A DNA stretch of 43,071 bases from an uncultured Bacteroidota bacterium (GTDB lineage Bacteria > Bacteroidota > Bacteroidia > Bacteroidales > WCHB1-69). Below, piece after piece: positions 1 through 33,235 of the stretch. The stretch's first letter is position 1; each line of letters starts with the position of its first letter. Where the stretch lies: the NCBI GenBank assembly GCA_902774205.1, contig CACYHL010000003.1:1-43071 (forward strand), written 5' to 3'. The position numbers and the translations under genes were made by a program. Below the pieces are notes generated by a model. It was not told the DNA's origin. It saw only the letters and a list, made by a program, of their open reading frames with translations, and made no database searches.

Positions 1-601
1 TCAATATAACAAAACCTCATTGAACGAGTTGAACAAGCAGCTTAAGGTTCGTGTTCGCGCGCTGCCGACCTTGAAAAACAAGGAGTCGGCTCTCCGCATG
101 GAGGTGAAAAAAGCCAAACAGCGGGCGGAATCCATTTCCTTGCAATTGCTTGAAAAAATGGACTCTTACGATCATTTGTCCGGATTATGGAACGAGTTTG
201 AACACGGGCTGCTCGCGGTTTCTGATGTGAAACTCAAAACCGTGAAAATCGCCGGTGTGCCTGTCCCTGCTTTGGAAGAGGTTTTTTATGAAGTGAAAGA
301 GATTAATCTTTTCACAAAACCGATGTGGTATGCTGACGGGCTGCAGATTTTGAAAGACCTTGTGCAACTTGGCATTGAATCTGAAGTTTATACAGAAGTC
401 AGCCGTGTTCTTGATTTTCAAAGAAAAAAGACAACTCAGAAAGTGAATCTTTACGAAAAAGTTCAGATTCCGGGATATAATGAGGCAATAAGAAAGATAA
501 AACGTTATATGGAAGACGAGGAAAATCTTTCAAAAGCTTCACAGAAAATTGTTAAAAGCAGGCATTCACAAGAAGAAAAGGAGGCGGAAAATGGTAATTA
601 A
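1..601 (+). CDS. ntpD: V-type ATP synthase subunit D, 5' end runs off the window
   Basis: Frame is open from nt 2 (QYNKTSLNELNKQLKVRVRALPTLKNKESALRMEV...), so the TTG at 20 is probably not the real start. Size is about 200 aa, the protein is coiled-coil rich, and subunits I and K follow directly. Confidence 0.85.
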   Translation, partial: QYNKTSLNELNKQLKVRVRALPTLKNKESALRMEVKKAKQRAESISLQLLEKMDSYDHLSGLWNEFEHGLLAVSDVKLKTVKIAGVPVPALEEVFYEVKEINLFTKPMWYADGLQILKDLVQLGIESEVYTEVSRVLDFQRKKTTQKVNLYEKVQIPGYNEAIRKIKRYMEDEENLSKASQKIVKSRHSQEEKEAENGN

Positions 602-9729: not shown

Positions 9730-11709
9730 TTACCAATCTTTTTCCTGATGGGCTTTCGCCCCCTGTCGCATCTCTTGTGCCTTGACTTTCTGCTGTGTGT
9801 TGCGCTCATTCTGCTGCAACGCGTCTAACTGGCGTTTCTCCTCCTGCCGCTTCTGTTTGTCAGCCGCAGACTCGCCATTATCTTTCTTGTCTTTATTTTG
9901 CTGGTTATCAGAATTTTGTTTGTCTTGCTGATTCTGTTTGTCCTGTTTATCCTGATTCCCGTTATTCTGATTTTGGTCTTGATTCTGCTTGTCTTGCTTA
10001 TCCTTTTTGTCATCACCTTGTCCGCCTTGGTTCTGCTGGTTCTGTTGGTCTTGGTTCTGATCCTGATTCTGATTCTGTTGGTTTTGTTGTTGTTGCTGCT
10101 GTTGTTGTTTCAATTTTTGTTTCGCATATTCAAGATTATATTTTGTATCCAAATCAGAAGGGTCGAGTTTGAGAGAGTTCTTGAAGGCATTGACAGATTC
10201 GCTGTAATTTTCCTGTTTCATAAGGGAGTTGCCGAGGTTGTGATAGGCTTTTGCGCGGAGTTTCGCATCCGCGGAGGGCTGTTCTGCCACGCCTTTGAAA
10301 TATTGCGCGGCCTCGTCGTAACGCTCCTGTCGGTAGAGCGCTGTGCCGAGATTATAGTTCGCCTTGTCGTAGTTTTTATTTGAAGACAAAGCTTTACGGT
10401 ATTGGACCTCAGCGCTTTGGTATCCTTCAGCCGATTTTTTGAAAAGTTCACCCGCTTTGCGTTCGTTTACATTTCCGCCTTTTTCAAGCATAGACATCGC
10501 TTCCTCGCGGTATTTTTCCGACTGGTAAAATTTGTCGTTGCCGTGCCTTATCGAAGAGAGCTCGTCTGTTGTTTGTGCATAAAGCATTGAGGATAAGAAT
10601 ATTAAAACAAGTAAAGAAATAGAAGTTTTGACTTTTAGCATATCCTGCAAACTGTTGAAAATTTTTCTTATTCCGTATTTTGATTTCGAGCCGAGAAGGA
10701 TCATTTCTGCGAAAAGTGCGATAAGTCCGATGATAAGTGGGATTTGGAATTTGCTTTCGTAACGGGCGAATGTGACTTCATCGAGTTCAGTTTTTGTCAT
10801 CGCGTCAATTTTCTCCTGAATCGCCTCGAAGCCCATGTTAGCATTGTTCGCGTGGACGTAGACGCCGTTGCCAGCCGCTGCAATCTCTTGAAGCACAGAC
10901 TCATTTAGGCGGGTCATCACTGTATTGCCCTCATTGTCTTTCTTATAAGAGACTGAGCCGTTCGGAGCACGGACGGGAATTGGTTCACCGCGTGTTGAGC
11001 CGATTCCGATAGTGTGCACGGTGCAGCCCATCGAAGCAACATCTCCGGCAAGTTCCACCGCCTCGTCAAAATGGTCTTCACCATCAGAAACAACAAGTAT
11101 AACTTTGGAAGTCAATGAGTTGAGTTTTTGGCTCTGTTCGTTGCCGTTGTCTTCAGGAATCATTGACACCGCTGCAAGGTCGAGGGCGGCGGCGATATTT
11201 GTGCCTTGCTCGTTCATCATATCGGGTGAGACATAATTCACGAACATCTTAGCTGCGGCGTAGTCGCTGGTGATTGGCAGTTGTACGAATGCGTTCCCTG
11301 CAAAGACAACCAATCCGATGCGGTCGCCGCGCAGGTGGTCGATGAAGCGCGACAACGCCATTTTAGCGGCATCGAGTCTGTTGGGGCGAATGTCTTCCGC
11401 TAACATACTGTTCGAAATGTCGAGACAGACCATGATGTCCACACCCTGACGTTTGCCTTTTTCGAGCGAGCTGCCAACCTGCGGATTCGCGAGCGCGAAG
11501 ATGAGCGCCGCCAATGCCGTCATCAGCAGAGCGAATTTGATGTGCTCTTTCGCAGGCGAGCGGTCGGGTTGCAATTTCTCCAAAAGTGCAATGTCACCGT
11601 ATGTCGCCAAACGATGTTTTCTTCTGATTTTCAGAAAGATATATAAAGCCGTTAGCAGCGGAATCAGCGTGAGCGCGTATAGAACGTATGTGTTTTCAAA
11701 CCGGAACAT
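9730..11709 (-). CDS. BatB-like VWA protein fused in frame to a BatC-like TPR protein with a Q/N/D/K-rich tail
   Basis: N-terminal TM segments plus a VWA MIDAS motif (DIMVCLDISNSM, LVVSDGEDH). An internal signal-like MLKVKTSISLLVLIFLSSMLYAQ sits at codon 357 (ATG at 10641), followed by TPR-like repeats. No in-frame stop separates the two halves. Confidence 0.7.
   Translation of the reverse strand: MFRFENTYVLYALTLIPLLTALYIFLKIRRKHRLATYGDIALLEKLQPDRSPAKEHIKFALLMTALAALIFALANPQVGSSLEKGKRQGVDIMVCLDISNSMLAEDIRPNRLDAAKMALSRFIDHLRGDRIGLVVFAGNAFVQLPITSDYAAAKMFVNYVSPDMMNEQGTNIAAALDLAAVSMIPEDNGNEQSQKLNSLTSKVILVVSDGEDHFDEAVELAGDVASMGCTVHTIGIGSTRGEPIPVRAPNGSVSYKKDNEGNTVMTRLNESVLQEIAAAGNGVYVHANNANMGFEAIQEKIDAMTKTELDEVTFARYESKFQIPLIIGLIALFAEMILLGSKSKYGIRKIFNSLQDMLKVKTSISLLVLIFLSSMLYAQTTDELSSIRHGNDKFYQSEKYREEAMSMLEKGGNVNERKAGELFKKSAEGYQSAEVQYRKALSSNKNYDKANYNLGTALYRQERYDEAAQYFKGVAEQPSADAKLRAKAYHNLGNSLMKQENYSESVNAFKNSLKLDPSDLDTKYNLEYAKQKLKQQQQQQQQNQQNQNQDQNQDQQNQQNQGGQGDDKKDKQDKQNQDQNQNNGNQDKQDKQNQQDKQNSDNQQNKDKKDNGESAADKQKRQEEKRQLDALQQNERNTQQKVKAQEMRQGAKAHQEKDW
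9880..10107 (-). repeat. low-complexity coding repeat (Q/N/D/K-rich, CAG/CAA/AAC/GAC-based)
   Basis: Encodes QQQQQQQQNQQNQNQDQNQDQQNQQNQGGQGDDKKDKQDKQNQDQNQNNGNQDKQDKQNQQDKQNSDNQQNKDKKD. Confidence 0.8.
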
Positions 11710-11747
11710 ATCCTAATTTTTTAAACCGAGTATTTTTATAAGAACCG

Positions 11748-11755
11748 CAAAGATA
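11748..11755 (-). promoter_or_regulatory. -7 promoter box (TATCTTTG) for the batBC-SDR-ABC transcription unit
   Basis: Reverse complement of caaagata matches TAnnTTTG, 39 nt upstream of the ATG at 11709. Confidence 0.35.
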
Positions 11756-11872
11756 CTTATTTTTTGGATATTTTAAACGTTATGGGCAATATGTTTTTTT
11801 TGAAATTTTTTGAGGTGTTATACTCCTGATTTTTGTTTTTTTATAGAGCTTCAGTGGTATTGAAATTTTTTT

Positions 11873-11880
11873 TATCTTTG
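11873..11880 (+). promoter_or_regulatory. -7 promoter box (TATCTTTG) for the glycine-rich gene array
   Basis: Matches TAnnTTTG 67 nt upstream of the ATG at 11947. It is the only such box in the AT-rich 237-nt intergenic region on this strand. Confidence 0.3.
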
Positions 11881-11946
11881 TTGAATAATTGAGAGTATAA
11901 TTGTGAAGGGTAATAAAATAGTTTTTTTGCTGAAAATTATTGGATT

Positions 11947-13524
11947 ATGAAAACAAGAAAAGTGATTTTGTTACTGTCTGCAATTGTGGCGGCTGTTGTG
12001 TGTGCGGATGCGCAAAGCATAACCACAACATACAGTTATGCATGGAAATATGATACGGTGTATAAAAATCAGACGGGGACGCAAGATTATGCGTACACAG
12101 GTTCATATCAGACTTACGCAGCTTCTGCTGGAACGTATAAATTGGAGGTCTGGGGAGCGCAAGGCGGCTATAGAAGTTCCTCCTCATACGGTGGTGCTGG
12201 CGGTTATTCTGTCGGTTCTTTGACACTCACGGCACCGGTCACGTTGTATATTTATGTTGGAGGCTCGGGAAATACGGGCGGCACGAACGGCGGTTTTAAT
12301 GGCGGCGGCATGAGGGCGACATACGCTGGAGGTGGAGGCGGTACGGACATGCGCATTAATGGAACCACATGGTATCATCGTGTTATTGTCGCTGGCGGCG
12401 GCGGCTCGTGCGGGGCGTCATCGTATGGGGGATTTAACAATTACGGTTACGGCGGAGGTACAAATGGCGGCTCTCCTTATAACGGCTGCGGTACAGAATA
12501 TGGTTATGGTACACAGACTGGAAACTCATATTCAACAAATACGTCTTATACTGATAAAAATACAGGTAGCCAAGCTGGTGGATTTGGTTTTGGAGGTTAT
12601 GGCGCGTACTATGCGAGTGGCTACGGTGGCGCTGGTGGCGGCGGCTGGTATGGTGGCGGCGGCTGTTATCCCGATGGCAGTGTAGATGATGATGGCGGTG
12701 GCGGCGGTGGCAGCGGCTACGTTTACACTTCGTCAACGGCTTCATATTATCCTGCCGGTTGCATGTTGAACTCGTCATATTATCTTACCAATGCGCAGAC
12801 AATTGCGGGTAACACATCTTTCCCATCTACAATTACAGGAACAAATGAAACCGGACATAGTGGAAATGGCTATGCCAGAATAACATATACTTATAAAGTT
12901 ATCGACCATATTGACTCCACAGTTAATCATATCTATGTTACTACAACAATTACTGACTTCGTGTGCAAGAATGGCGTTTATAACCAATACGGTTTTACGA
13001 TCAATGGCCAGACTTTGACGAGTGGAGTTCACACTTTTACAAATCATTTCAGTTATGGGAATACCGATAGCACTGTTTGTCTGAATATAACTATACGCCC
13101 TGATCCTACAACGTTTGAGGAGATTGAAGCCCCATACTCTTACACATGGCCTGTAAATGGAATAACATACACAGAATCAGGTATATATAGCTATTCAACT
13201 GTTACACAAGACGGCTGCGACAGCACTGTGATTCTTGCCCTCACAATTTACGACCCGACAATTGGAATTGGGGAAAATGTTGATTTTCAAGATGTTATTG
13301 TTAAACCGAATCCTGCGCAAGATTATATAGATATAATAACAGAAGTCGCCTCAGCGGTTGATTTGACAGTTTATAACATTTATGGTCAGGCGTGCCTGAC
13401 AAAACAACTGACAGAGAGAGAGACAAGGGTTTCGCTCAGCGCGCTTCCAGTGGGAACATATTTTCTTCGTTTTGGCGAGGCAGGGAAAAAATTCAAAACC
13501 CATAAGATTATTAAAACCGAATAA
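11947..13524 (+). CDS. secreted glycine-rich-domain protein with T9SS C-terminal sorting domain (paralogue 1)
   Basis: Signal peptide MKTRKVILLLSAIVAAVVCADAQ. Motifs YTGSYQTY..AGTYKLEVWGAQGG, GGAGGYSVG..LYIYVGGSG, GGGGGTDMRI and RVIVAGGGGS, ending ETGHSGNGYARITY (PF12810-type Gly-rich pattern). A conserved middle domain follows. The last ~80 aa (KPNPAQDYIDI..LTVYNIYGQ..LPVGTYFLRF..KIIK) look like a Por secretion tail. Confidence 0.8.
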   Translation: MKTRKVILLLSAIVAAVVCADAQSITTTYSYAWKYDTVYKNQTGTQDYAYTGSYQTYAASAGTYKLEVWGAQGGYRSSSSYGGAGGYSVGSLTLTAPVTLYIYVGGSGNTGGTNGGFNGGGMRATYAGGGGGTDMRINGTTWYHRVIVAGGGGSCGASSYGGFNNYGYGGGTNGGSPYNGCGTEYGYGTQTGNSYSTNTSYTDKNTGSQAGGFGFGGYGAYYASGYGGAGGGGWYGGGGCYPDGSVDDDGGGGGGSGYVYTSSTASYYPAGCMLNSSYYLTNAQTIAGNTSFPSTITGTNETGHSGNGYARITYTYKVIDHIDSTVNHIYVTTTITDFVCKNGVYNQYGFTINGQTLTSGVHTFTNHFSYGNTDSTVCLNITIRPDPTTFEEIEAPYSYTWPVNGITYTESGIYSYSTVTQDGCDSTVILALTIYDPTIGIGENVDFQDVIVKPNPAQDYIDIITEVASAVDLTVYNIYGQACLTKQLTERETRVSLSALPVGTYFLRFGEAGKKFKTHKIIKTE

Positions 13525-13535
13525 ATTCCGCTAAT

Positions 13536-15116
13536 ATGAGAAAGTTCCTGAGTCTATATATTGTGATTTTCATATTTTCATGTGTTTACTCGCAAAGTAT
13601 CACAACAACATACAGTTACACGTGGAAGTATGATACGATATATACCAATGGGCAAACAGGAACACAAAATTTCGCTTATACGGGTAGTGTGCAGACATTC
13701 AATGCGCCATCAGCGGGAAGCTATACGTTTGAAGGCTGGGGTGGGCAAGGTGGAGGAACCCGTGGTGGAAAAGGTGCTTATGCAAAATGTGTGATGACAT
13801 TGACACAAGCGAAAACCATATATGTTTTAGTTGGCGGAAATGCCGGAGTCTCTTCGCAAGGTTCTAATTATTGTGGTGGCGGCGGTGGTGGAACATACAT
13901 TTATTTTAGTAGCACGGATCCCAATCCGATATTGGTTGCCGGTGGCGGCGGCGGTCAGGCGGAAAATGCGTATGGTGGTGTCGGAAGCGGGACGAACAGC
14001 GCTACAAATTCAACTTCTGGAACAGGAAATGGCCCATTGGCAAGTGTTGGATATGGCGGAAATAGTGGGACAAATATAGGAAGTTATTCTTGTGCGGCAG
14101 GTGGGGCAGGTTGGCTGACAAATGGCAGTGACGGTCTGACAATCAGAAATTTTGGCGGTGAAGGAGGAAAAGCTCCGCGTAATGGAGGCGCAGGTGGATA
14201 TGGCTATCATTCAAGTGGTTATAGTGGATTTGGCGGCGCTTTTGGCGGCGGCGGCGCGAATTGTGATAATACAGGCGCAGGTGGCGGCGGTGGTGGATAT
14301 ACTGGCGGGTCTGGTGGAAATAACTATGCCGGCTCACAGGTATGGGGCGCGGGTGGCGGCGGCGGCTCCTATTATTATGGTGCGACAGGTCAGTTGATTT
14401 CCGGAGACAATGTTATGCCATCAACTTCCGGCGGTACTGAAACAGGGCATAGTGGAAATGGTTATGCTAAAATAACTTATAATACCAAAGTCATAGATCA
14501 TATCGACTCCTCCATACTTTACACATACGTTATAACAAACATTTACGATTCTGTCTGCCCTGACGGCATCTACAGCAAATTCGGCTTCATTGTCAAAGGT
14601 GACACACTGTCGGAGGGAGCGCACACATACAGCCATTTGACACAAACCTCAGGGAAAGACAGTACGACAATTCTTCACCTTACTATCAAGCACTCAATGA
14701 CAATTTTTGATGAGGTTGACGCCCCATATTCTTACACATGGCCGATAAATGGAGTGACATATACAGAATCAGGGATTTACAATTACACTGCGCTCACCCA
14801 AGACGGCTGCGACAGCACTGTGATTCTTGCCCTCACAATTTACGACCCGACAATTGGAATTGAAGAGAAAATTAAGATACAAGATATTATTGTTAAACCG
14901 AATCCTGCTCAAGACTTTGTGGATATAACAATGGAAGTCGCTTCGGCGATTGAATTGACAGTGTATAATATTTATGGTCAGGCATGCCTGACAAAAAAAC
15001 TGACAGAGAGAGAGACAAGAGTTTCGCTCAGCGCGCTTCCGGTGGGAATTTACATACTTCGTTTCGGCGAAGCAGGAAATAAAATCAAAACCTATAAGAT
15101 AGTTAAAAACGAATAA
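13536..15116 (+). CDS. secreted glycine-rich-domain protein with T9SS C-terminal sorting domain (paralogue 2)
   Basis: Same architecture, with a divergent core carrying GGGGGGTYIYF...PILVAGGGGGQA and GAGGGGGGYTGGSGG blocks. Starts 11 nt after paralogue 1. Confidence 0.8.
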   Translation: MRKFLSLYIVIFIFSCVYSQSITTTYSYTWKYDTIYTNGQTGTQNFAYTGSVQTFNAPSAGSYTFEGWGGQGGGTRGGKGAYAKCVMTLTQAKTIYVLVGGNAGVSSQGSNYCGGGGGGTYIYFSSTDPNPILVAGGGGGQAENAYGGVGSGTNSATNSTSGTGNGPLASVGYGGNSGTNIGSYSCAAGGAGWLTNGSDGLTIRNFGGEGGKAPRNGGAGGYGYHSSGYSGFGGAFGGGGANCDNTGAGGGGGGYTGGSGGNNYAGSQVWGAGGGGGSYYYGATGQLISGDNVMPSTSGGTETGHSGNGYAKITYNTKVIDHIDSSILYTYVITNIYDSVCPDGIYSKFGFIVKGDTLSEGAHTYSHLTQTSGKDSTTILHLTIKHSMTIFDEVDAPYSYTWPINGVTYTESGIYNYTALTQDGCDSTVILALTIYDPTIGIEEKIKIQDIIVKPNPAQDFVDITMEVASAIELTVYNIYGQACLTKKLTERETRVSLSALPVGIYILRFGEAGNKIKTYKIVKNE

Positions 15117-15130
15117 TAAAATCTGCTAAA

Positions 15131-16666
15131 ATGAGAAAGTTCCTATGTGTGGTTATAGTAATTTTCATATTCTCAGACATTTACTCTCAAAACATCACAA
15201 CAACATACAGTTACACATGGAAGTATGACACGGCATATAATAGTCAGGTAGGAACGCAAAATTTTGCTTATACTGGTTCCGTTCAGACTTATACGGTTAA
15301 TCCAGGGACATATACATTGGAAGTATGGGGGGCGCAGGGAGGATATTATAGTTCCAATATAGGGGGGTATGGAGGATATTCAATTGGTACACTTACTGTT
15401 ACAGGACAAACTGTATTATATATTTATTGTGGCGGTTATCCGGGATATTCTTCTGTGAGTGGGTTTAATGGGGGCGGAACAGGCTCATCGTCTTATGGTG
15501 GCGGCGGCGGTGGCGGTTCAGATATTCGTGTTGGCTCGAATTCTCTTTATGCGCGTGTCATAGTGGCTGGTGGTGGCGGCGGCTCGGGCTATAATCATGG
15601 TTCTGGTGAAACTGGTGGTTATGGCGGCGGGACACAAGGCGGTACAGGAACGTGTGCGTCTTATACTGCTTTATCTTATTTTGGACAAGGTGGAACTCAA
15701 AATTCTGGAGGAAGCAATACTTCCGCATATACAGGCAATTACACATCGGCTTCTTTTGGGCAAGGGGCGTCCAACACCAACTCCTACTATGGGTTTGGTG
15801 GTGGTGGTGGCTGGTATGGTGGCGGTGCGGGACAATATGAACCTGCTGGCGGTGGGAGCGGTTACGTATATACTTCTGCAACAGCAAGTTATTATCCTCA
15901 AGGTTGCCTGCTTAATTCATCTCATTACCTGACTTCCGCAGTAACATACGCAGGTAATACTTCCTTTGCGTCCACTACAGGGGGAATAGAAACAGGACAT
16001 AGCGGAAATGGTTATGCAAGAATCAAGTATTCTTTCAAAACTATTGACCATATCGATTCTTCGATAAATCATATTTATGTTACTACAACAATTACTGATT
16101 TTGTCTGCAAAAATGGGGTTTACAATAACTATGGCTTTACTGTTAATGGAGCATCTTTGTCAAGTGGAGTTCATACTTTTACTAATCATTTTACGTATGG
16201 AAATACAGACAGCATTGTCTGTTTGAATTTAACAATCAGACCTGATGCAACTGTATTTGATGAAGTTGAAGCCCCATATTCTTATACTTGGCCGATAAAT
16301 GGAGTAACTTACACGGAATCAGGTATATACAACTATACTACCGTGACGGCTGAAGGTTGTGACAGCACTGTGATTCTTGCCCTCACAATTTACGACCCGA
16401 CAATTGGAATTGAAGAGAATGCTGATTTACAAGATATTATTATAACACCGAATCCGGTAAACGATCATATTGACATAAAAACAACAGATGTTGCCAATTC
16501 ACTTAATTTGACCGTGTATAACATATATGGTCAAATTTGTCTCACGCAAATGTTGACAAATAGTGAGACACGGATTTCCGTTAGCGAGTTTCCTGCGGGA
16601 ACCTATTTTTTCTGTTTTATCAAGGCAGGGAAAAAATTAATAACTAAAACAATTATAAAAAACTAA
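15131..16666 (+). CDS. secreted glycine-rich-domain protein with T9SS C-terminal sorting domain (paralogue 3)
   Basis: Same architecture (YTLEVWGAQGG, GGGGGGSDIRV, RVIVAGGGGGSG, ETGHSGNGYARIKY, T9SS tail). Starts 14 nt after paralogue 2. Confidence 0.8.
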   Translation: MRKFLCVVIVIFIFSDIYSQNITTTYSYTWKYDTAYNSQVGTQNFAYTGSVQTYTVNPGTYTLEVWGAQGGYYSSNIGGYGGYSIGTLTVTGQTVLYIYCGGYPGYSSVSGFNGGGTGSSSYGGGGGGGSDIRVGSNSLYARVIVAGGGGGSGYNHGSGETGGYGGGTQGGTGTCASYTALSYFGQGGTQNSGGSNTSAYTGNYTSASFGQGASNTNSYYGFGGGGGWYGGGAGQYEPAGGGSGYVYTSATASYYPQGCLLNSSHYLTSAVTYAGNTSFASTTGGIETGHSGNGYARIKYSFKTIDHIDSSINHIYVTTTITDFVCKNGVYNNYGFTVNGASLSSGVHTFTNHFTYGNTDSIVCLNLTIRPDATVFDEVEAPYSYTWPINGVTYTESGIYNYTTVTAEGCDSTVILALTIYDPTIGIEENADLQDIIITPNPVNDHIDIKTTDVANSLNLTVYNIYGQICLTQMLTNSETRISVSEFPAGTYFFCFIKAGKKLITKTIIKN

Positions 16667-16682
16667 AAAAAACAAAGGCATC

Positions 16683-18233
16683 ATGAAAAAGCTAATCAAC
16701 ACTTTAATTCTGATTTGCGTGTTTTCAAGTGTTTACTCTCAAAGTATTTCTACAACTTACAGTTTCACTTGGAAATATGACACGGTTTACAACACACAGA
16801 ACTCTGTACAGAATTTTTCTTACACGGGATCTGTTCAAACGTACTCGGTGAGTGCAGGAACATACAAATTGGAGGTATGGGGTGCACAAGGCGGTCGTGC
16901 GTATTATTCGTCAAGTAGTTATGGATATGGTTATGGAGGCTATGGAGGCTATGCATCAGGTACTTATACTGTAAATGCACCTACGACCTTGTATGTATGT
17001 GTGGGGGCGGAAGGCACGTATAGTAACAGCAATAGCGGCTCAAGCAGCGGTGGTTATAATGGTGGCGGTGCGGGTTATTATTACGGTGCTGGTGGCGGTG
17101 GCGCTACTCATATATCCTTAATGAGTGGTCTGCTACAGAATATTGGCACTTCGAATAAATCAAAGATACTTTTGGTTGCAGGCGGTGGCGGCGGCGGTTA
17201 TCATTATGCGTCCACAAGTTCTTCATACGCGTATCAGGGCGGTTATGGTGGCGGTTCGTCTGGTGGAAGCGGTAGCGGGTATTCATACTATGGTTATGGT
17301 GGAAGCCAATCGTGTGCGGGACATTCAAGTTACAGCTCATCGTATGGCGCAGGCGGCTTTGGTTATGGTGGAAGTTATTACAGCTCAAGTTCAGGGTATG
17401 CCACTGGCGGCGGCGGCGGCGGACTCTATGGCGGCGGCGGCTCCTATAGACGTGGCTCAGGCGGCGGCGGCTCTGGTTATGTGAATACATCGTTACTTAC
17501 AAATTATCAGAACTCATCTGGTAACACATCTTTCCCATCCACTGTTTCTGGAAATACAGAGACAGGACATAGTGGTAATGGATATGCCAGAATATCATAT
17601 TCTTATACGTCAATAGATCATATAGATTCAACCATTGCACACACATATATCAGAACAGATATCTACGATTCGATTTGCAATGGTGAAATGTACAGCCAAT
17701 TGGGGTTCACAATAGATTCTGATACGATTTCTGATGGAATGCATTTGTACACAAAGCATTTCTCTACAACAAACACAGACAGCATGGCATACCTTCATCT
17801 TACAATCAAACCAGACATAGAGGTTTACGAGGAGATTGATGCGCCATATACCTATACGTGGCCAGTGAATGGGGTAACTTACACGGAATCAGGTATATAT
17901 AGCTATTCTACTGTGACAGATGAAGGCTGTGACAGCACTATAATTCTCGCTCTTACAATTTATGACCCGACAATTGGAATTGAGGAAAATATTGATTCGC
18001 AAGATATTAGAATCTCTCCAAATCCTGCGCATGATTATATTGATGTGAAAAGTGATTTCACAAATGTTGATGTGTATATATATAATATGTATGGGCAAAA
18101 ATGTATGGAGAAAAAGTTGACGGAAAATGATACGCGTATTTCTTTAAGCGGGCTTCAAGCAGGGGCATATTTTCTCCGTTTTGCTGAGTCTGGAAAAATT
18201 TTCAAAACACATAAAATTATAAAAAGCGAGTAA
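16683..18233 (+). CDS. secreted glycine-rich-domain protein with T9SS C-terminal sorting domain (paralogue 4)
   Basis: Same architecture with a Gly/Ser/Tyr-rich core (YKLEVWGAQGG, GAGGGGATHISL, LLVAGGGGGGYHY, ETGHSGNGYARISY, T9SS tail). Starts 16 nt after paralogue 3. Confidence 0.8.
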   Translation: MKKLINTLILICVFSSVYSQSISTTYSFTWKYDTVYNTQNSVQNFSYTGSVQTYSVSAGTYKLEVWGAQGGRAYYSSSSYGYGYGGYGGYASGTYTVNAPTTLYVCVGAEGTYSNSNSGSSSGGYNGGGAGYYYGAGGGGATHISLMSGLLQNIGTSNKSKILLVAGGGGGGYHYASTSSSYAYQGGYGGGSSGGSGSGYSYYGYGGSQSCAGHSSYSSSYGAGGFGYGGSYYSSSSGYATGGGGGGLYGGGGSYRRGSGGGGSGYVNTSLLTNYQNSSGNTSFPSTVSGNTETGHSGNGYARISYSYTSIDHIDSTIAHTYIRTDIYDSICNGEMYSQLGFTIDSDTISDGMHLYTKHFSTTNTDSMAYLHLTIKPDIEVYEEIDAPYTYTWPVNGVTYTESGIYSYSTVTDEGCDSTIILALTIYDPTIGIEENIDSQDIRISPNPAHDYIDVKSDFTNVDVYIYNMYGQKCMEKKLTENDTRISLSGLQAGAYFLRFAESGKIFKTHKIIKSE

Positions 18234-18267
18234 TCAATAGATTGTATTGCAAATAATAGTTTTTTTT

Positions 18268-18300
18268 AACATCTTCGATTGTAAGATGTTTTCTTTTTTT
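18268..18300 (+). terminator. rho-independent terminator closing the four-gene array
   Basis: 8-bp stem AACATCTT (18268-18275) pairs with AAGATGTT (18283-18290) around a 7-nt loop, followed by TTCTTTTTTT. Confidence 0.7.
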
Positions 18301-18302
18301 AT

Positions 18303-18310
18303 TATCTTTG
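18303..18310 (+). promoter_or_regulatory. -7 promoter box (TATCTTTG) for the lipoprotein / mltF-like unit
   Basis: Matches TAnnTTTG 30 nt upstream of the ATG at 18340, immediately after the terminator. Confidence 0.4.
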
Positions 18311-18339
18311 CAATTCATAAAAATTAAAGATAAAGTCCA

Positions 18340-18732
18340 ATGAAAAAGTTTTTTTATCTTCCGATATTTGTTTTAATGGTAGTCGTTTTGGCGGTCGCTT
18401 GTAAAAAAGACACTTCTTGTGGTGCTTTGATTCGTGTCTATTTCTCTGAAAATGGGCAAGATGCGGAGGAGCCGGCTACTGACGCGCTCGTGCAAATCGG
18501 TACTAACGCCAACTATGCTGATTTCGCTAAAGCGGAGGGGTATACTAATGCTGACGGCGTTTTCGAGTGGACATTCAAGTACGAGGCTTCTCTCGATATC
18601 GTGGTTACTACCACGCGCCCGTTTTTTATAAATGACTCTACTATGGTTGAAATGCCGTATAAGGGCACGTCTCAGGTGAAACTGGAACCGGGTGAGACTG
18701 TTGAGGTTACGGTTTTGGTTCTGCCTGAGTAA
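18340..18732 (+). CDS. small lipoprotein of unknown function
   Basis: Lipobox-like signal MKKFFYLPIFVLMVVVLAVAC followed by a beta-rich 110-aa body. No family recognised. Confidence 0.6.
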   Translation: MKKFFYLPIFVLMVVVLAVACKKDTSCGALIRVYFSENGQDAEEPATDALVQIGTNANYADFAKAEGYTNADGVFEWTFKYEASLDIVVTTTRPFFINDSTMVEMPYKGTSQVKLEPGETVEVTVLVLPE

Positions 18733-18746: not shown

Positions 18747-20108
18747 GTGGCTTTGAAACAGAGTAAGTCAGCCTTTTTTCTACTTGGACTTTCTTCTTTG
18801 TGTCTGTTTCTTATAATTTATTGGTGCTTTCCAGCAAATAATTATAAAACAGAACATTATAAGAATGTTTGTGAATCTGACAGCACTTCGTTAAACGTTT
18901 TTTTGTTTGCGAATTATTCCGATTATTTTGTCTATCGTGGAGTTCCTCTTGGTTTTCAGTATGAATTATTGAAAATTTTGGGGGATTCTCTGCATTTGGA
19001 TTTGAATATTGATGTGGAGTGCGACTATTATAATATAGTATGTGAGCCAAGAGGGAAAAAATATGATGTCGTGGCGATGGAACTGCCTCATTGTGAATGG
19101 CTTAACTCAATGGTCTGTTGGTCTTTGCCATTCGATACCACTTATCCTGTTTTGGTTGGCGGCAAGCGTCTCCTTACTACAGATAGCGCATGTACGCTTT
19201 ATCTGCCTGCGAATTTTGCTGCTGCGATTTCATACGATTCCCTTCCGAAATCGGCTAAATGGACGGTTGAGAAGAGCAGTTACGCCACAGTTGAGGATCT
19301 TTTCGACTGGCTTGACAAAGGCCGTATTGACTATATGGCTTCTGATTATCATACCGCTGCGCTTCTTTTGCAGTTTTATCCCGATTTGTCTATTGTAAAG
19401 CAGATTGGACATCCTTATTCGAGGCAATGGATTCTCAGGTTTGAAAATGATTCCCTTAACATGGTGATTAATAATTGGTTGGGGGATTTTGTTAATTCAA
19501 GAAAATATAATTCGCTTTGCAGAAAATATTTTTCACAAAGATCGAATGTGCAGAATGTCCCTCAGGCGAAGAGAAAGACACATCATATTTCGCCATACGA
19601 TAACATTGTTAGAAAATATTCAGCGGCCGCAGGTGTTGATTGGCGTTTTGTACTCTCGATTATGTATCAGGAATCGAAGTTCTATAGCGGTTTGTACGGG
19701 CTTGGCGGTAGTTTTGGGCTTATGCAGATGATGCCTGTAACGTGTGAGAAGTATGGCATTGACGAGAACTCTTCAGAAGAGGAGCAGATAAGTGCCGGAG
19801 TAAGGCATATCAAGTCGATTCAGCGTTTTTTTGCTAATATTGATGATGAGCGGGAGAAGATGAAATTTACGGCAGCCGCGTATAATTCGGGGCCCGGTCA
19901 CATTCAGGATGCGCAACGGCTTTGCTTGAAATATGGTGATAATCCGTATTTATGGGAGGACGTTTCAAAATACCTTATATTGAAGGCTGAAAAAGAGTTT
20001 TACACAGATCCTGTTGTCAGGTGCGGCTACTATCCGGGACGTCATGCTGTAAATTATGCCGACATTGTAATTAACAGGTATGACTCATACTGTCTGTTGT
20101 TCAGATAG
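18747..20108 (+). CDS. MltF-like membrane-bound lytic transglycosylase (solute-binding-like N-domain plus SLT domain)
   Basis: N-terminal TM/signal, and C-terminal SLT motifs MYQESKF, GLMQMMPVT and AAYNSGPGH. GTG start at 18747, 14 nt after the lipoprotein gene. Confidence 0.75.
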   Translation: MALKQSKSAFFLLGLSSLCLFLIIYWCFPANNYKTEHYKNVCESDSTSLNVFLFANYSDYFVYRGVPLGFQYELLKILGDSLHLDLNIDVECDYYNIVCEPRGKKYDVVAMELPHCEWLNSMVCWSLPFDTTYPVLVGGKRLLTTDSACTLYLPANFAAAISYDSLPKSAKWTVEKSSYATVEDLFDWLDKGRIDYMASDYHTAALLLQFYPDLSIVKQIGHPYSRQWILRFENDSLNMVINNWLGDFVNSRKYNSLCRKYFSQRSNVQNVPQAKRKTHHISPYDNIVRKYSAAAGVDWRFVLSIMYQESKFYSGLYGLGGSFGLMQMMPVTCEKYGIDENSSEEEQISAGVRHIKSIQRFFANIDDEREKMKFTAAAYNSGPGHIQDAQRLCLKYGDNPYLWEDVSKYLILKAEKEFYTDPVVRCGYYPGRHAVNYADIVINRYDSYCLLFR

Positions 20109-20217: not shown

Positions 20218-23200
20218 ATGAACAAGATGAAACAATTATCACTAATTTTATTGCTTATGACTGAAACAGTTATTTGTCATACGCAATCAATCAGCAACAA
20301 CAATTATTCAGAAGAATGTAGGAGGGAGTGCCGGCGGCGGCAGGAGTCGGTTATGCGTAGTGTCGATTCGGCATACGCAGTGGTGGAGCCGTTCTTCAGG
20401 CGGGCATACACTTTGTATCCCTCTGTCCCACGCGGGTTTCTTGAGGCGGTGTCGTATTATTATACGCGTTTTGCCTTTGTGCCTTTTGATGAGAGAGACA
20501 TTGGGGGCGCGGAGGAAATACCTAAGACATACGGAGTTATGGGGCTGACACTTGATGGGAAGGGCGTTTTCAGGAACAATCTCATTCTGGTTTCCGAACT
20601 CTCAGGTGTGCCTTTGCCCGACATCTTATCTTCTCCGCAGAAAAGTGTTGCAGCTTACGCCGCCGCTTTTGCAGAATTGCAGAAACGGATGGGTGTATAT
20701 TCTGATTCGCCAGAAGATTATATTCCTATTTTGCTGGAACTTTCAGAGCTTCCTTTTGATGATGACTTGGAGGAAAATTTCGCCATGCAGAGTTATCTCT
20801 ATTCTGTTTTTGAATTTATGTCGGATTATGCGGGAAATTCGAAATATGGGGTGCCGCGGCGAAATATTGATATGAAAAAAATATTCGGAAGTCGGTTGGA
20901 ATTGCACAGCGCGCCGAAAATTCAGATGTCGGAGAATGATGCGCGTGCGGTGCCCGATTATGACTTGGCAATTTGGAATCCTGCTGGCTCATGTAACTAT
21001 ACCACAATGCAGTCGCGGAATATTTCAGCGGTTACAATCCATTATACATCAGGCACATACGCGGGTTCGATAGCGTGGTTTCAAAACTGCACATACAATG
21101 GGGTGGGGGCGCAGGCGTCGGCTCACTACGTCATCCGCTCATCAGATGGGCAGATTACGCAGATGGTAAGGGAAAAAGACAAGGCGTGGCATGTGAGGAC
21201 GGAAAACGGCTACACAATTGGAATTGAACATGAAGCCTACGGCAATGTCTATAGCTTTTTCACGCCAGCGATGTATAATGCGTCGGCTGAGCTTGTTCGC
21301 GACATCTGTGCGCGCTATCAAATTAACCCGCATCGCACTTTTTATAGGGACACTCTTGATGACGGAACATGTTTGAATGTTGGTGTGCACAGTCTCGGTG
21401 GAGAGGCCGCGTGTACCAAAATCCGTGGACATCAGCATTTCCCGAACCAGACACATACTGACCCCGGACCATACTGGGATTGGAACTACTATTATAAGTT
21501 GTTGAATCCCAATCCCGAAGTGCATACTTTTACCGCTGCTACGGGCGTTTTGACAGACAGCGGCGGCGAAGACGGGGATTATGGCTGTGATGAAAGAATT
21601 TTGTATCTGATAGAAGTCCCTGATGCGAAGCGGATTGCGCTTAAATTTACAAATTTTGACTTGGAAAAGAACTATGACTTTTTGTGGATTTATGATGGCA
21701 ACTCTGTCTATTCACCGTTATTAGGACGTTGGAACAGCGTTTCACCGGAAGTCGTCACTTCATCTTCGAATGCGCTGCTGTTGGAGTTCCGTTCAGATTG
21801 TGCGACAACGGCTTCCGGTTGGAAAGCGTTATGGGAAGCTGAATTTGACGCGGAGGAGGTGGTATATGACACATCGCCGCAGACCGAAATATGGCTTGAT
21901 GAAAACAAATGGCAGACCAAGGATTTTTCCGTCGAATTTAAGGATGTCGCAACGGCCGGTGTCAAGTACAGTTTTTATCAGGTCATTGAAAATGATGGTT
22001 CGGAATGGCGTGCCAACGGGAAGCGTGGATTTCTATGCTCAAATTTCGACCAGTCGCTTGCAAATACCGATTGGAAGACAGTTTCAGGAAATTGGAAAGT
22101 GCTGGTCCACAGGCTTGAGCAAACAGATGTGTCGGCAGAGGTAGCTGTCATTGCAATTCCGTTTAATCCTACAGAAAGCGATGTTTCTCTTTACGATGTT
22201 TATGCAAATGTGCTTGAAAATGGTGCGGGGGCTTGCGGCGTGGGCATATACTTCTGTGCCGATAACAAAAATTCTCCTCAAAACGGCTATTATTTGGAGA
22301 TACTACCGACAGAGAAAAAGATGAAACTTTACAGATTGCGCAATGGCGTGACCACTGTTTTGAAGACGTTGAATAATATTGTAACTAACTTGAATCAGAA
22401 CTATTTATATAGGATTTGTCATGATAGGAAAACCGGGATCATAAAGGTCTTCCGTCACAATAATCTGCTAATGCAGGTTGGAGACGGCTTTCCTCCAGCA
22501 ATTTCAAACGGCTTTTTTATGCTTCAAACGAATAATTGTCGTGTCGCGTTTGACAATTTGCGGGCATATCGTTCCCGAAGTGACAATGTCGTTGTAACTG
22601 TCGGCTCTGGAAGTCAGAAAGATGTCACATCACAAGCTGTTGGCGGTGTCTCCAAATGTAAAGTCAAGTCGATAATTATTGATGAAAATGACAATTTTTC
22701 CTCCTTGTCGGAGAAGAAGGTGCTTGTTGACTACACTGCTCCGCCGAAGCCGAAATGGGTTAAGGTTGAGCCGTGGCAGACGAATTTGAGCGTGTATGAT
22801 AACAGTCCTGTGAAAGTGACATGGGAGAGTGTCAGTGATATTCATTCGGCGCCGGTTGAATACAGTTACCAGATAACTGAGACCGGTGTTGGAGGCAAGA
22901 CTGTCGCTTCGAAATGGATGGATGTTGGCGAAAGTTGTGAGGTCGTTGTTACTTCTGCGTTCGACAAAGGAAAAAGTTATGTTGTGCGGGTTGTGGCGCG
23001 CAATCAGGCGGGATTAAGTTCGGCGGTGGCCTTGTCGTCACAGTTTGTGGCAGGAGGTCATGTGGTTCATGAGACGTTGTCTTCGGCTGAAAGTGGTTCT
23101 GTTGTTTGCGGAGAGGTGGGCGAGAGCCCATTTGATAAGTGGGGTAGGGCAGAGGAATTGCTGATTTATCCCAATCCGGCTTCGGCGGAGGTCACGCTCA

Positions 23201-23364
23201 GCGGGGCTTGTGCGGGGGCGCGTGTGGGGATATATGGCGCTGCAGGCGGAATTGTGCGCACTTGTACGTTGAGCGGTGACTGTAAAATTGATGTTTCTGG
23301 CTTGCCTCGCGGAATGTATGTGATAAAAGTTGGAAATGCGGTAGCACGCTTCGTCAAGTATTGA
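20218..23364 (+). CDS. multidomain secreted N-acetylmuramoyl-L-alanine amidase (Amidase_2/PGRP-like) with CUB-like domain and T9SS C-terminal sorting domain
   Basis: Signal peptide. Amidase_2-like block at aa ~255-425 (VTIHYTSG, SAHYVIRSSDGQITQMV, KAWHV, IGIEHEA, HQHF..THTDPGPYWDW). CUB-like block at aa ~437-543 (GCDERILYLIEVPDAKRIALKFTNFDLEKNYDFLWIYDGNS...LLLEFRSDCATTASGWKALWEA). C-terminal LLIYPNPASAEVTL...GMYVIKVGN...FVKY. Confidence 0.75.
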   Translation: MNKMKQLSLILLLMTETVICHTQSISNNNYSEECRRECRRRQESVMRSVDSAYAVVEPFFRRAYTLYPSVPRGFLEAVSYYYTRFAFVPFDERDIGGAEEIPKTYGVMGLTLDGKGVFRNNLILVSELSGVPLPDILSSPQKSVAAYAAAFAELQKRMGVYSDSPEDYIPILLELSELPFDDDLEENFAMQSYLYSVFEFMSDYAGNSKYGVPRRNIDMKKIFGSRLELHSAPKIQMSENDARAVPDYDLAIWNPAGSCNYTTMQSRNISAVTIHYTSGTYAGSIAWFQNCTYNGVGAQASAHYVIRSSDGQITQMVREKDKAWHVRTENGYTIGIEHEAYGNVYSFFTPAMYNASAELVRDICARYQINPHRTFYRDTLDDGTCLNVGVHSLGGEAACTKIRGHQHFPNQTHTDPGPYWDWNYYYKLLNPNPEVHTFTAATGVLTDSGGEDGDYGCDERILYLIEVPDAKRIALKFTNFDLEKNYDFLWIYDGNSVYSPLLGRWNSVSPEVVTSSSNALLLEFRSDCATTASGWKALWEAEFDAEEVVYDTSPQTEIWLDENKWQTKDFSVEFKDVATAGVKYSFYQVIENDGSEWRANGKRGFLCSNFDQSLANTDWKTVSGNWKVLVHRLEQTDVSAEVAVIAIPFNPTESDVSLYDVYANVLENGAGACGVGIYFCADNKNSPQNGYYLEILPTEKKMKLYRLRNGVTTVLKTLNNIVTNLNQNYLYRICHDRKTGIIKVFRHNNLLMQVGDGFPPAISNGFFMLQTNNCRVAFDNLRAYRSRSDNVVVTVGSGSQKDVTSQAVGGVSKCKVKSIIIDENDNFSSLSEKKVLVDYTAPPKPKWVKVEPWQTNLSVYDNSPVKVTWESVSDIHSAPVEYSYQITETGVGGKTVASKWMDVGESCEVVVTSAFDKGKSYVVRVVARNQAGLSSAVALSSQFVAGGHVVHETLSSAESGSVVCGEVGESPFDKWGRAEELLIYPNPASAEVTLSGACAGARVGIYGAAGGIVRTCTLSGDCKIDVSGLPRGMYVIKVGNAVARFVKY

Positions 23365-27382: not shown

Positions 27383-28783
27383 ATGAAAATTCAATTTTTG
27401 GGAGCGACATCTGAAGTTACTGGCAGCAAGTTTTTGTTGACCACGTCAAAAGGAGTTAAAATTCTCTTGGATTGCGGTATGTATCAAGGAAAGGGACTTG
27501 AAACGGATGCTATGAACAGGGATTTGGGTTTCGAGCCTACTGAAATTGATTTCTTGCTGCTTTCACATGCGCATATCGACCATTCAGGGCTCATACCATA
27601 TATTTACAAATTGGGTTTTAGGGGAAAGATTTTCTGCACACCAGCCACACGTGACCTTTGCTCAATAATGTTGACAGATTCGGGAAAGATTCAAGAGGTT
27701 GATACTGTGCAGTTTAATAAAAAACGTGCCAAATCCGGTCTGCCGCCAGTTGACCCTATTTATACGATGAAAGATGCGGCTGACTGTATGCAGCAGTTTA
27801 TCAGTGTTCCATACGATTTGAAATACAGCCTGACACCAGACTTTTCCGTGACTTTTATTGATACGGGGCACATGCTCGGAAGTTCTGCTGTTTACATTGA
27901 ATTTAAGGAAGGCCGGAAAAAGCGGAGTTTGTGCTATACGGGCGATGTTGGCAGGTATGACAAGCGTATTTTACGCGACCCCAAACCGTTCCCGCAAGCT
28001 GATTATATCATCACGGAGTCAACCTATGGCGACAAGTTGCATTCCACATTGGAAATCGCTGAGCAGGACCTTTTGCTGACAGTGAAGGATGCTTGTGCGA
28101 AACGTAGGGGAAAACTGCTGATACCGTCATTCGCAATCGGAAGAACACAGGAGATTGTTTATGCGCTTCACCGGCTGAAAATCAAGGGCGATCTACCCGA
28201 TATTGACATTTTTGTCGATAGCCCGTTGGCGTTGTCGGCAACAAATATCTTCAGACTTCATGCGGATTGTTTTAACGAGGATATGCAGGAGTTCCTTGCG
28301 AAAGAGACTGACCCGTTCGGATTCGAGAATCTGCACTATGTCCGTTCGATAGAGGATTCCAAGAATCTTAACAGTTACAACCGACCATGCGTCATTATTT
28401 CTGCTTCGGGGATGATGGAGGCGGGGCGTATCAAGCACCACTTGGCAAACAATATCGAGAATCCGCGCACCACAATACTTTGTGTCGGTTATTGCTCGCC
28501 AACAACGCTCGGCGCGAAAATCATGCGTGGCGACAAGGAGGTCTCAATTTTCGGTGTCAACTACAAGGTGAAGGCGACTTTGGTGCGGATTGAGGCCTTC
28601 TCGGGGCACGGCGACTACAGCGAACTGATACGCTATCTCTCATGTCAGGACAAGAAAAAGGTCAGAAATATTTTCATCGTTCATGGTGAGGACGAGGTGC
28701 GTGGACACTATAGCAACCACCTCAATGAGGCTGGCTTCCATAAAAATTATGTTCCGTCATTTAAGGAAGAGATTAAAATATAA
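27383..28783 (+). CDS. MBL-fold / beta-CASP metallo-hydrolase (RNA-metabolising type)
   Basis: LSHAHIDHSG (HxHxDH) and DTGHMLGSS, a beta-CASP-sized insert, and C-terminal FSGHGD. Confidence 0.8.
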   Translation: MKIQFLGATSEVTGSKFLLTTSKGVKILLDCGMYQGKGLETDAMNRDLGFEPTEIDFLLLSHAHIDHSGLIPYIYKLGFRGKIFCTPATRDLCSIMLTDSGKIQEVDTVQFNKKRAKSGLPPVDPIYTMKDAADCMQQFISVPYDLKYSLTPDFSVTFIDTGHMLGSSAVYIEFKEGRKKRSLCYTGDVGRYDKRILRDPKPFPQADYIITESTYGDKLHSTLEIAEQDLLLTVKDACAKRRGKLLIPSFAIGRTQEIVYALHRLKIKGDLPDIDIFVDSPLALSATNIFRLHADCFNEDMQEFLAKETDPFGFENLHYVRSIEDSKNLNSYNRPCVIISASGMMEAGRIKHHLANNIENPRTTILCVGYCSPTTLGAKIMRGDKEVSIFGVNYKVKATLVRIEAFSGHGDYSELIRYLSCQDKKKVRNIFIVHGEDEVRGHYSNHLNEAGFHKNYVPSFKEEIKI

Positions 28784-30938: not shown

Positions 30939-31157
30939 GGTTCTCACTTTTGGGGGCGACTTTCTTTGATACTGCAAAAGTAGTGTTTTTTTTAATACAC
31001 TATAAAGAAGTTAAGTGATTAATTTTCAGTTATTTATCATAATATTGTGACGAATTCGCACCCCATTAGGGGCGACAAGACACAGGTGCGGAAAATAGGG
31101 GAGGTGGTTGCCGTGGAAGAGGGGGGAGGATGATTCCCCATAAACTCAAAGCAAAGG

Positions 31158-31736: not shown

Positions 31737-31864
31737 GATGGGAAGTTTTTTTTGTATTTGTTAATTATTATGCTGTTTGGTATCCATAATCTAATGTGCG
31801 ATTTCGATGATTGGTTTGTGATGCTGATTCTGAATATAATACTGAAATTGTGGTCACCGTGCTA

Positions 31865-33217: not shown

Positions 33218-33235
33218 TTGTTTCCGCCCTTTTAT

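Follow-up and report, generated by a model that had tools for sequence, protein, structure and literature searches.

A tandem array of predicted type IX secretion cargo paralogues with exchangeable ALK/LTK-type glycine-rich heads in an uncultured Bacteroidales bacterium

Introduction

What would a bacterium do with four adjacent genes whose products join a head resembling the glycine-rich domain (GRD) of the metazoan receptors ALK and LTK to signals for export from the cell? This question is raised by a 43,071-nt stretch of DNA (contig CACYHL010000003.1, positions 1 to 43,071, of the assembly GCA_902774205.1; hereafter called the window) from the metagenome-assembled genome of an uncultured Bacteroidota bacterium of the order Bacteroidales, a member of the gut or rumen microbiota. 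An earlier note on this DNA, made from the sequence alone, had described four co-oriented open reading frames (ORFs) of 511-526 residues separated by 11-16 nt and had suggested that a constant chassis for export carries a diversified head. The four ORFs are indeed present at 11947-18233 with gaps of 11, 14, and 16 nt, and are here named W_1 to W_4 in the order from 5' to 3' (Table 1). Overall, we consider, with a probability of roughly 0.6, that they are cargo paralogues of the type IX secretion system (T9SS) that display exchangeable TG (TNF-like and glycine-rich) heads as a binding repertoire.

Results

Each W protein is, with near certainty, composed of a Sec signal peptide, a TG head, a spacer of two repeat units, and a type-A C-terminal domain of T9SS. 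In the search with hidden Markov models, all four heads exceeded the gathering cut-off (24.5 bits) of PF12810 (IPR055163, ALK_LTK_GRD); the scores of W_1 to W_4 were 152.6, 25.1, 143.3, and 111.7 bits, respectively, so that W_2 cleared the cut-off only marginally. Also, a family profile (alignment A3) matched the GRD of human ALK (7ls0) with an E-value of 1.3e-36 at the profile positions 37-332, namely over about 300 positions, and the same profile matched LTK (E 1.3e-32) and Caenorhabditis elegans SCD-2 (E 4.8e-21). The C-terminal domains of all four proteins passed the cut-offs of TIGR04183 (39.2-41.4 bits; cut-off 23) and PF18962 Por_Secre_tail (35.5-43 bits; cut-off 27), the latter with 36.8 bits for W_1, 41.1 bits for W_3, and 43 bits for W_4, and the modelled sorting domains resembled the solved C-terminal domains of T9SS cargo (8glk_D, TM-score 0.80; mirolase 8qb1, TM-score 0.71). 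As read from the sequence, the signal peptide is a hydrophobic N-terminus of 19-22 residues that ends in YS or DA before Gln, and it was helical in the AlphaFold models of W_1 and W_2. The signal peptide, the PF12810-type head, the middle domain with conserved Cys residues, and the type-A tail had all been proposed in the earlier note, and these assignments were borne out.

The fold of the head was examined in the AlphaFold models, of which the mean pLDDT was 74.5 for W_1 and 83.5 for W_2, with 91-98 in the head of W_2. When the PDB was searched with Foldseek, the significant fold matches of the W_1 and W_2 heads were ALK/LTK TG domains only; indeed, the top 20-21 matches of the two models were all ALK/LTK with TM-scores of 0.30-0.61. 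The W_2 model matched the TG domain of LTK (7nx1) with an E-value of 9.6e-11, a TM-score of 0.61, and an identity of 26%, and the W_1 model matched ALK/LTK TG domains with TM-scores of up to 0.45. In both models, beta-strands were contributed by the N-terminal block and by the stretch ending in ETGHSGNGYARITY; the strands are located at residues 24-103 and 280-319, and the Gly region between them has almost no helix or strand. Because the strands come from both ends, we regard the N-terminal block and the ETGHSGNGY motif as the two halves of one TNF-like sandwich. According to the models, therefore, the N-terminal block, the Gly core, and the ETGHSGNGY motif constitute one TG domain, and the earlier proposal that the first and the last are modules of their own does not hold. 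In W_2, furthermore, residues 136-284 had a block-mean pLDDT of 82-98 with almost no helix or strand assigned, and runs of GGG or longer occur six or seven times per head. The region is consistent with a predicted polyglycine-II lattice.

Comparison of paralogues revealed which parts of the head vary. Among ten non-redundant paralogues, Gly occupied 28 of the 43 invariant columns of the head, and insertions and deletions, which are located between the Gly runs, were found in 154 of the 353 columns; in terms of the sequence, the head appears to be a scaffold of conserved Gly residues, with the variation confined to the connectors. In all copies, the Gly-run motifs follow each other in the same order. 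The cores had been thought to differ in length, composition, and the order of motifs; the differences in length and loop sequence are real, but the order is maintained. The identity between the paralogues was 69-75% with few gaps in the N-terminal block, 38-55% with 23-107 gapped columns in the Gly-rich core, 75-88% without gaps in the ETGH motif, 59-83% without gaps in the middle domain, and 49-76% with few gaps in the C-terminal domain. The Glu, His, and Ser residues of the ETGHSGNGY motif do not vary among the four copies.

The middle domain (about 125-130 residues) is made of two degenerate repeat units, each of which retains one of two Cys residues (C340 and C424 in the numbering of W_1, both invariant), and is 83% identical between W_1 and W_3. 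No model in Pfam or NCBIfam matched this domain, but an exhaustive search with it gave 6678 representative clusters (50% identity) at E<=1e-3. Among the 150 best matches to the repeat (P0236-P0385), each protein had 8 to 68 matched stretches in 554 to ~6600 residues, and the repeat was found to have a period of 49-52 residues, two Cys residues per unit, and the consensus C-x-S-Y-T-W-x-x-N-G-x-T-Y-x-x-S-G-T-Y ... G-C-D-S-x-x-T-L-x-L-T-V. A tail of the Por_Secre_tail or CHU_C type was present in eight of the 12 distinct proteins checked. The spacer of the W proteins hence belongs to a very large and unannotated family of repeats, whose checked members are mostly T9SS cargo.

Syntenic arrays were found in three relatives: L002, L003 (a metagenome-assembled genome from yak rumen), and L090 (GCA_017443555.1), the copies in the first two of which are denoted L2_n and L3_n. 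While the window has four copies, L002, L003, and L090 have six, five, and five, respectively. The synteny is the same in all four genomes: the arrays are flanked on one side by a gene for a BatB-like VWA/TPR protein and on the other by those for a 130-residue protein, an SLT protein, and an Amidase_2/CUB/T9SS cargo protein. In NCBI, the related proteins are named only "T9SS type A sorting domain-containing protein". As the heads that they share are 99-100% identical, L002, L003, and L090 are assigned to one group at the species level, and the flanking proteins of the window are 73-95% identical to those of this group.

Two heads in the window have clear counterparts in L002. W_2 and L2_1 are 92% identical in the core, with a ratio of nonsynonymous to synonymous substitutions (dN/dS) of 0.03, versus 71% in the middle domain and 46% in the C-terminal domain; W_4, whose orthologue in the relatives is the last copy of the array, has a core with 84% identity to that of L2_6 (dN/dS 0.04) versus 58% in the middle domain and 55% in the C-terminal domain. 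The dN/dS in the tails was mostly 0.15-0.29, with the exception of the short tract mid_b between W_4 and L2_6 (0.04). These identities and dN/dS values mean that the head is the most constrained part of the proteins and that the chassis is not constant between species. The chassis described in the earlier note is thus constant within a genome, but between species the stalk and sorting domain retain 46-71% identity as compared with 92% and 84% for the heads.

Within a genome, the tails are homogenised. In their middle domains, L2_1, L2_2, and L2_3 have identities of 95-99%, and the synonymous divergence (dS) between L2_2 and L2_3 is 0.00 over the ETGH motif and the first unit of the middle domain. 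Among the paralogues in the window, dS of the second unit is 0.5-0.8 in five of the six pairs, while that of the other blocks is mostly more than 1 or saturated; also, W_1 is mosaic in that its middle domain resembles that of W_3 but its C-terminal domain that of W_2. The low or zero dS in the tails and the mosaic identity point to recombination between paralogues. Recent gene conversion in the window was nonetheless rejected, since the best DNA identity between the paralogues is 83-85% (the 3' ends of W_1 and W_2). Judging from these distances, the exchange is old in the array of the window and recent only in the species of L002, namely in the L2_2/L2_3 tracts with dS = 0.

The head itself has been replaced in L090. 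Copy 2 of L090 (8450-9985) is 98-100% identical to its positional allele L3_2 at nt 1-195, only 38-69% identical at nt ~200-875, and again mostly 85-100% identical at nt 880-1536 with a dip to 72% at nt ~1090-1150, while the other heads of the two strains are 99-100% identical. On this alignment, copy 2 is a replacement of the head core with the breakpoints at EVWGAQGG and GNGxARI. The swapped-in head does not have the ETGH motif, which is invariant otherwise, and reads GTNSGNGKARISY. Homologous recombination at the EVWGAQGG and GNGxARI flanks therefore exchanges the head core as one cassette, and the copy number is altered by unequal crossing-over. The heads comprise at least three old GRD lineages, each of which is under strong purifying selection. 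Taken together, the comparison indicates that the repertoire is altered by the swapping of cassettes and by the duplication or loss of copies and that the head types are old and conserved. The arrays are hence not the same in all relatives (4, 5, 5, and 6 copies and one head swap), and the idea of a diversified head on a chassis is right as to the replaced core in L090 and the varying copy number but not in the sense of heads that diversify fast.

Two further features of these arrays were observed. The swapped-in head of L090 contains a Gly-poor segment, GGGATHIATVTGLLANISSASILIVAGGGGG, which is similar to the W_4/L2_6 type. Also, the last copy in the relatives is set off by a gap of ~226 nt (16326-16552 in L002, 8301-8527 in L003, and 13193-13419 in L090), which contains a called 54-residue ORF on the minus strand in L002; the equivalent gap in the window is 16 nt. 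The last array gene in L002, L003, and L090 may have its own promoter.

The best database matches to W_1 were proteins of ~879 residues with three tandem GRDs and no signal peptide. A gene for this triple-GRD protein (L086-L088 10001-12640, P0072) is located in the tail region of a prophage integrated in Blautia wexlerae or B. obeum, with PHROG matches for tail-fibre and tail proteins upstream and a GH25/CHAP endolysin gene ~3.7 kb downstream. The prophage proteins P0003, P0072, P0047, and P0100 have the same types of modules in differing orders and combinations, which looks like module shuffling when their sequences are compared. Triple-GRD proteins form very many clusters at 90% identity in human gut metagenomes. 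In a neighbour-joining tree of GRD modules (222 columns, 200 bootstraps), W_1 was grouped with one type of Blautia prophage module at 85%, to which it is 62-67% identical; among the modules in the tree, the identity was 66-67% as compared with 59% or less to the array paralogues. W_4 and L2_6 were grouped at 98%. W_2 and L2_1 were also grouped at 98%, and the clade that contains them, likewise supported at 98%, consists of ALK-like GRDs of several phyla. Heads of this W_2 type are joined to many other modules for anchoring at the surface, such as Big_2, PKD, PEP-CTERM, pilin-like N_methyl, and choice-of-anchor modules.

In three lineages of phages, a GRD protein is encoded at the distal end of the tail-fibre genes or adjoining it. 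In addition to the Blautia prophage, gp21 of the Clostridioides difficile phage phiCDHM11 (164.7 bits with PF12810) follows the tail-fibre gene gp20, and a viral contig in IMG/VR (L095 7941-8873) encodes, after baseplate and fibre genes, a GRD-only protein of 310 residues that is 56% identical to the W_1 head. W_1 also matched phrog_1589 (9e-32), which is one of the phage GRD families together with the PHROGs 5811 and 7388. In BFVD, 72 predicted viral structures, which include virion structural proteins of cyanophages and proteins of giant viruses, matched the W_1 model at E<=1e-3. A tblastn search of sequenced phages with the W_1 head gave no match, probably owing to the masking of low-complexity sequences; with the triple-GRD protein as a query, C. 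difficile phages were hit. The heads of the W proteins thus share ancestry with phage tail-module proteins. Given the identity of 62-67%, the likeness of the W_1 head to the Blautia module does not result from recent transfer.

A single promoter box upstream of the array and a strong terminator downstream had been proposed for the four genes. The box, TATCTTTG, and its T-rich surroundings are conserved in position ahead of the L002 and L090 arrays, but matches to TAnnTTTG in the window (39 versus 34.8 expected) show no enrichment, and the box is therefore a candidate promoter only. The putative terminator, in contrast to the proposal, would be of moderate strength: its stem of 8 bp (18268-18290) is A/U-rich, which is why it was overlooked by a consensus scan, and has a folding energy of -7.1 kcal/mol (z -3.2), with one of 200 shuffled sequences folding as well. 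No inverted repeats were found at 11600-18400, and a phase-variable (invertible) promoter was hence rejected. Silent donor cassettes within the window were also rejected, since tblastn with all four proteins gave nothing outside the array.

Table 1. Features of the window discussed in the text (blank cells, no entry)
Feature	Residues	Position (nt)	Strand	Remark
W_1		11947-13524	+	ORF, 525 residues
W_1 signal peptide	1-22	11947-12012		
W_1 head	23-314	12013-12888		TG/GRD
W_1 exchangeable core	75-300	12169-12846		within the head
W_1 spacer	317-441	12895-13269		two units of ~51-residue repeat
W_1 linker and C-terminal domain	442-525	13270-13521		type A
W_2		13536-15116	+	ORF, 526 residues
W_2 signal peptide	1-19			
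W_2 head	20-315	13593-14480		TG/GRD, divergent, more ALK-like
W_2 spacer	318-442	14487-14861		two units of ~51-residue repeat
W_2 C-terminal domain region	443-526			
W_3		15131-16666	+	ORF, 511 residues
W_3 signal peptide	1-19			
W_3 head	20-300	15188-16030		TG/GRD
W_3 spacer	303-427	16037-16411		two units of ~51-residue repeat
W_3 C-terminal domain region	428-511			
W_4		16683-18233	+	ORF, 516 residues
W_4 signal peptide	1-19			
W_4 head	20-306	16740-17600		TG/GRD, Ser/Tyr-rich
W_4 spacer	309-433	17607-17981		two units of ~51-residue repeat
W_4 C-terminal domain region	434-516			
Candidate promoter		11873-11880	+	Bacteroidetes -7 box TATCTTTG, 67 nt before the first ATG
Candidate intrinsic terminator		18268-18300	+	AACATCTT...AAGATGTT hairpin, then U-run; from sequence and fold
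BatB-like VWA/TPR protein		9730-11709	-	C-terminal tail of ~110 residues, low-complexity, rich in Gln/Asn/Asp/Lys (QQQQQQQQNQQNQNQDQNQDQQ...)
130-residue protein		18340-18732		lipoprotein-like N-terminus (..LAVAC); own TATCTTTG box at 18303-18310
MltF-like lytic transglycosylase (SLT)		18747-20108		syntenic with the array
Amidase_2 + CUB + type-A C-terminal domain		20218-23364	+	T9SS cargo, 1048 residues; TIGR04183 27.8 bits, AmpD-like amidase stretch
Beta-CASP/MBL-fold nuclease		27383-28783		466 residues; below NCBIfam cut-offs
Defence/mobile-looking island		30316-43046	-	
Fic-like C-terminal fragment		30316-30771	-	island
DUF4143/AAA_14 ATPase		31865-33217	-	island
AbiH		33408-34658	-	island
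Type I restriction-modification N6-methylase		34661-36307	-	island
HTH + M78 peptidase		36335-37420	-	island
DUF2971 protein		37812-38588	-	island
HsdR-like SWI2/SNF2 ResIII protein		40767-43046	-	island

The neighbours of the array are the genes for the BatB-like protein, the SLT protein, the amidase, FtsW, and MurB, and no phage genes are among them. The 130-residue protein is 95% identical between species, which makes its gene the most conserved in the neighbourhood, and has only a weak match to the N-terminal part of FAM171. The amidase cargo of 1048 residues is encoded downstream of the array in every relative and is not shown to be part of the array system, but its presence means that the genome encodes further type-A cargo. 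It is odd that a peptidoglycan amidase is exported past the outer membrane. The nuclease of 466 residues scored 413 bits with the NCBIfam model "type VII CRISPR-associated Cas14" (cut-off 800) and 299 bits with that of archaeal aCPSF1; since it is below both cut-offs, it is probably not a Cas protein but a housekeeping RNase of the beta-CASP type. The sign of the GC skew changes at ~32 kb.

Discussion

The favoured explanation is that the W proteins present TG heads on the cell as binding modules. The Sec signal peptide would be cleaved before Gln, and, in line with the established biology of T9SS, the C-terminal domain would take the protein through T9SS and would then be cleaved; the processed protein, its head facing outward, would stay anchored at the surface of the cell or be set free. 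Each head would be a non-enzymatic binding module for a distinct and stable target, and the array would provide the cell with a small and strain-variable set of recognition specificities. Binding of targets by the heads is plausible by analogy with the ligand binding of ALK/LTK and with GRD proteins at the end of phage tail-fibre modules. Several points nevertheless weigh against the display of a binding repertoire. No binding partner is recorded for bacterial GRDs, and none of the T9SS core genes (porK/L/M/N, sov, porU/V) was found in the 43-kb window. W_1 to W_4 are probably one transcription unit, as judged from the gaps of 11-16 nt, and W_1 and the prophage module are grouped with moderate support (85% in neighbour-joining of Gly-rich sequences). 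Furthermore, PtsHN10M from a C. difficile prophage, a trimeric protein of the PtsM type and the one tested example of its kind with a GRD, was experimentally shown to be a receptor-binding protein, but it was only its non-GRD C-terminal fragment (259-570) that bound the cells; the GRD fragment (1-269) did not (PMC9615553). Beyond the paper on PtsHN10M and reviews on polyproline-II bundles, we found no study of bacterial PF12810 proteins or of GRD proteins linked with T9SS.

The silent GRD of PtsHN10M would also fit a structural surface coat, in which rigid and protease-resistant polyglycine-II tiles cover the outer membrane as a layer for protection or spacing, without specific ligands, and the types of heads are interchangeable. 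Such a coat would be in line with the apparent co-expression of the four genes and with the stability for which polyglycine-II bundles are known, and it would explain why the Gly-run scaffold, with 28 of the 43 invariant columns, is the most invariant feature of the head. The loops between the Gly runs, however, are strongly conserved between orthologues (92%, dN/dS 0.03), which argues for a type-specific function over interchangeable tiles; each genome maintains a number of head types that are deeply divergent, and the phage GRD proteins are positioned at or beside the distal end of tail-fibre modules. We thus regard the coat as rather unlikely. An enzymatic role of the heads, with the E-T-G-H-S-G-N-G-Y motif as a catalytic or metal-binding site of secreted enzymes, might be imagined from the invariant Glu, His, and Ser in the four copies, but the motif aligns with the non-catalytic terminal strand "EGHGEVNI" of ALK, and one natural head (GTNSGNGKARISY) does without it. 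On these two grounds the enzymatic reading was rejected, and what chance is left to it is minimal; indeed, no enzyme family was matched in Pfam or NCBIfam, and the PDB fold searches gave no significant enzyme structure, with beta-glucuronidases appearing only at E >= 0.006 and a TM-score of ~0.1. The grappling-hook protein GhpA of Aureispira was too weak a match in Foldseek (E 3.8e-3, probability 0.33) to be taken further.

The tie to phages and the neighbouring genes invite other explanations. Since other members of the family occur in unrelated contexts and the array has no toxin, immunity, or lysis genes, we doubt that the heads are the targeting arm of an antibacterial or cell-wall-scavenging locus, binding other bacteria such as Gram-positive Lachnospiraceae in cooperation with the downstream T9SS-secreted peptidoglycan amidase and lytic transglycosylase. 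The genes for the 130-residue protein, the SLT/MltF-like protein, and the 1048-residue Amidase_2/CUB/T9SS cargo do follow the array in every relative, but this synteny is among close relatives only, and FtsW and MurB nearby resemble ordinary cell-wall housekeeping. Likewise, the W_1 head is closer to the Blautia prophage module (62-67% identity, 85% bootstrap) than to the array paralogues, and yet this identity speaks for no recent transfer. In a related and similarly doubtful proposal, the heads would be drawn from a pool of receptor-binding modules that is used by phages of gut Firmicutes at the tail tip, and the display of a recombining set that varies among strains would grip specific neighbours, for example Blautia-like Gram-positive bacteria in the case of W_1. 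If this were true, the gripping would serve co-aggregation or delivery of the amidase, which amounts to a contact-dependent, phage-derived targeting in anaerobic Bacteroidales of the gut or rumen. Even less can be said for phage decoys or receptor shields, by which heads on the surface or on vesicles hinder phage adsorption: the heads have homologues among the GRD proteins of phage tail modules, and a defence island lies 12 kb downstream, but in the relatives the island has no synteny with the array, Firmicutes and not Bacteroidales are the hosts of the related phages, and the benefit is not obvious when a copy of a receptor-binding protein would compete for the receptor of the host itself. 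Such a role is very improbable.

The display of TG heads as a repertoire therefore remains our preferred explanation. While the domain architecture is already known in that it is annotated automatically, what is new is a recombining tandem family of T9SS cargo with an ALK-type TG passenger, the exchange of its heads as cassettes, and its connection with phages. The GRD of ALK/LTK is one of a handful of known polyglycine-II lattices; indeed, in reviews on polyproline-II bundles no proteins are named other than antifreeze proteins, Obg, acetophenone carboxylase, gp38 of S16, and ALK/LTK. The locus is a natural experiment with divergent heads, one chassis, clean cassette swaps, and purifying selection on each type, which makes the question of binding by bacterial GRDs directly testable. 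Also, the breakpoints of the swap mark where the fold tolerates grafting and would be useful for the design of polyglycine-II proteins.

In comparison with known systems, the W heads are homologous to the TG domains of ALK/LTK (PF12810; 7nx1, 7ls0, 7n00) over the whole domain of ~300 residues with the same order of Gly runs, and the terminal strand EGHGEVNI of ALK corresponds to ETGHSGNGY..I of the W proteins. Unlike ALK/LTK, however, the W proteins have no kinase, transmembrane helix, or EGF-like, MAM, and LDLa domains, lack the N-terminal element "CGAxGxxGPTQ" of ALK by deletion, and are tandem paralogues with predicted export by Sec and T9SS. Ligands of the ALKAL type are not expected in bacteria.

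With the phage GRD proteins (PtsHN10M, gp21 of phiCDHM11, and the triple-GRD protein in Blautia), the W proteins share the domain family and the modular, shuffled nature of the heads. It is only the head that is common to the two, because the phage proteins have no signal peptide, stalk repeat, or T9SS sorting domain and the W array is not within a phage tail module. The tie to tail fibres suggests that GRDs are a general module of extracellular recognition in phages, bacteria, giant viruses, and metazoan receptors. The gp38 adhesins of T-even phages, of which the specificity is altered by swapping, provide an analogy only: gp38 of the Salmonella phage S16 (6F45) also has a polyglycine-II scaffold with Gly-rich motifs and variable loops, but 6F45 was not found among the Foldseek PDB matches listed for the W_1 and W_2 models, i.e., there is no detectable homology. 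Furthermore, the loops of gp38 are hypervariable, whereas those of the W proteins are conserved in each head type and the cores are swapped as a whole.

With other type-A cargo such as gingipains, mirolase, and giant repeat adhesins, finally, the W proteins have the C-terminal domain in common. The giant repeat proteins are filled with the same ~51-residue repeat, of which the W spacer has two units only. The passenger of the W proteins is nonetheless a GRD instead of a protease, a glycosidase, or a long fibre of repeats, and their genes are, unlike those of such cargo, arranged in a recombining tandem array.

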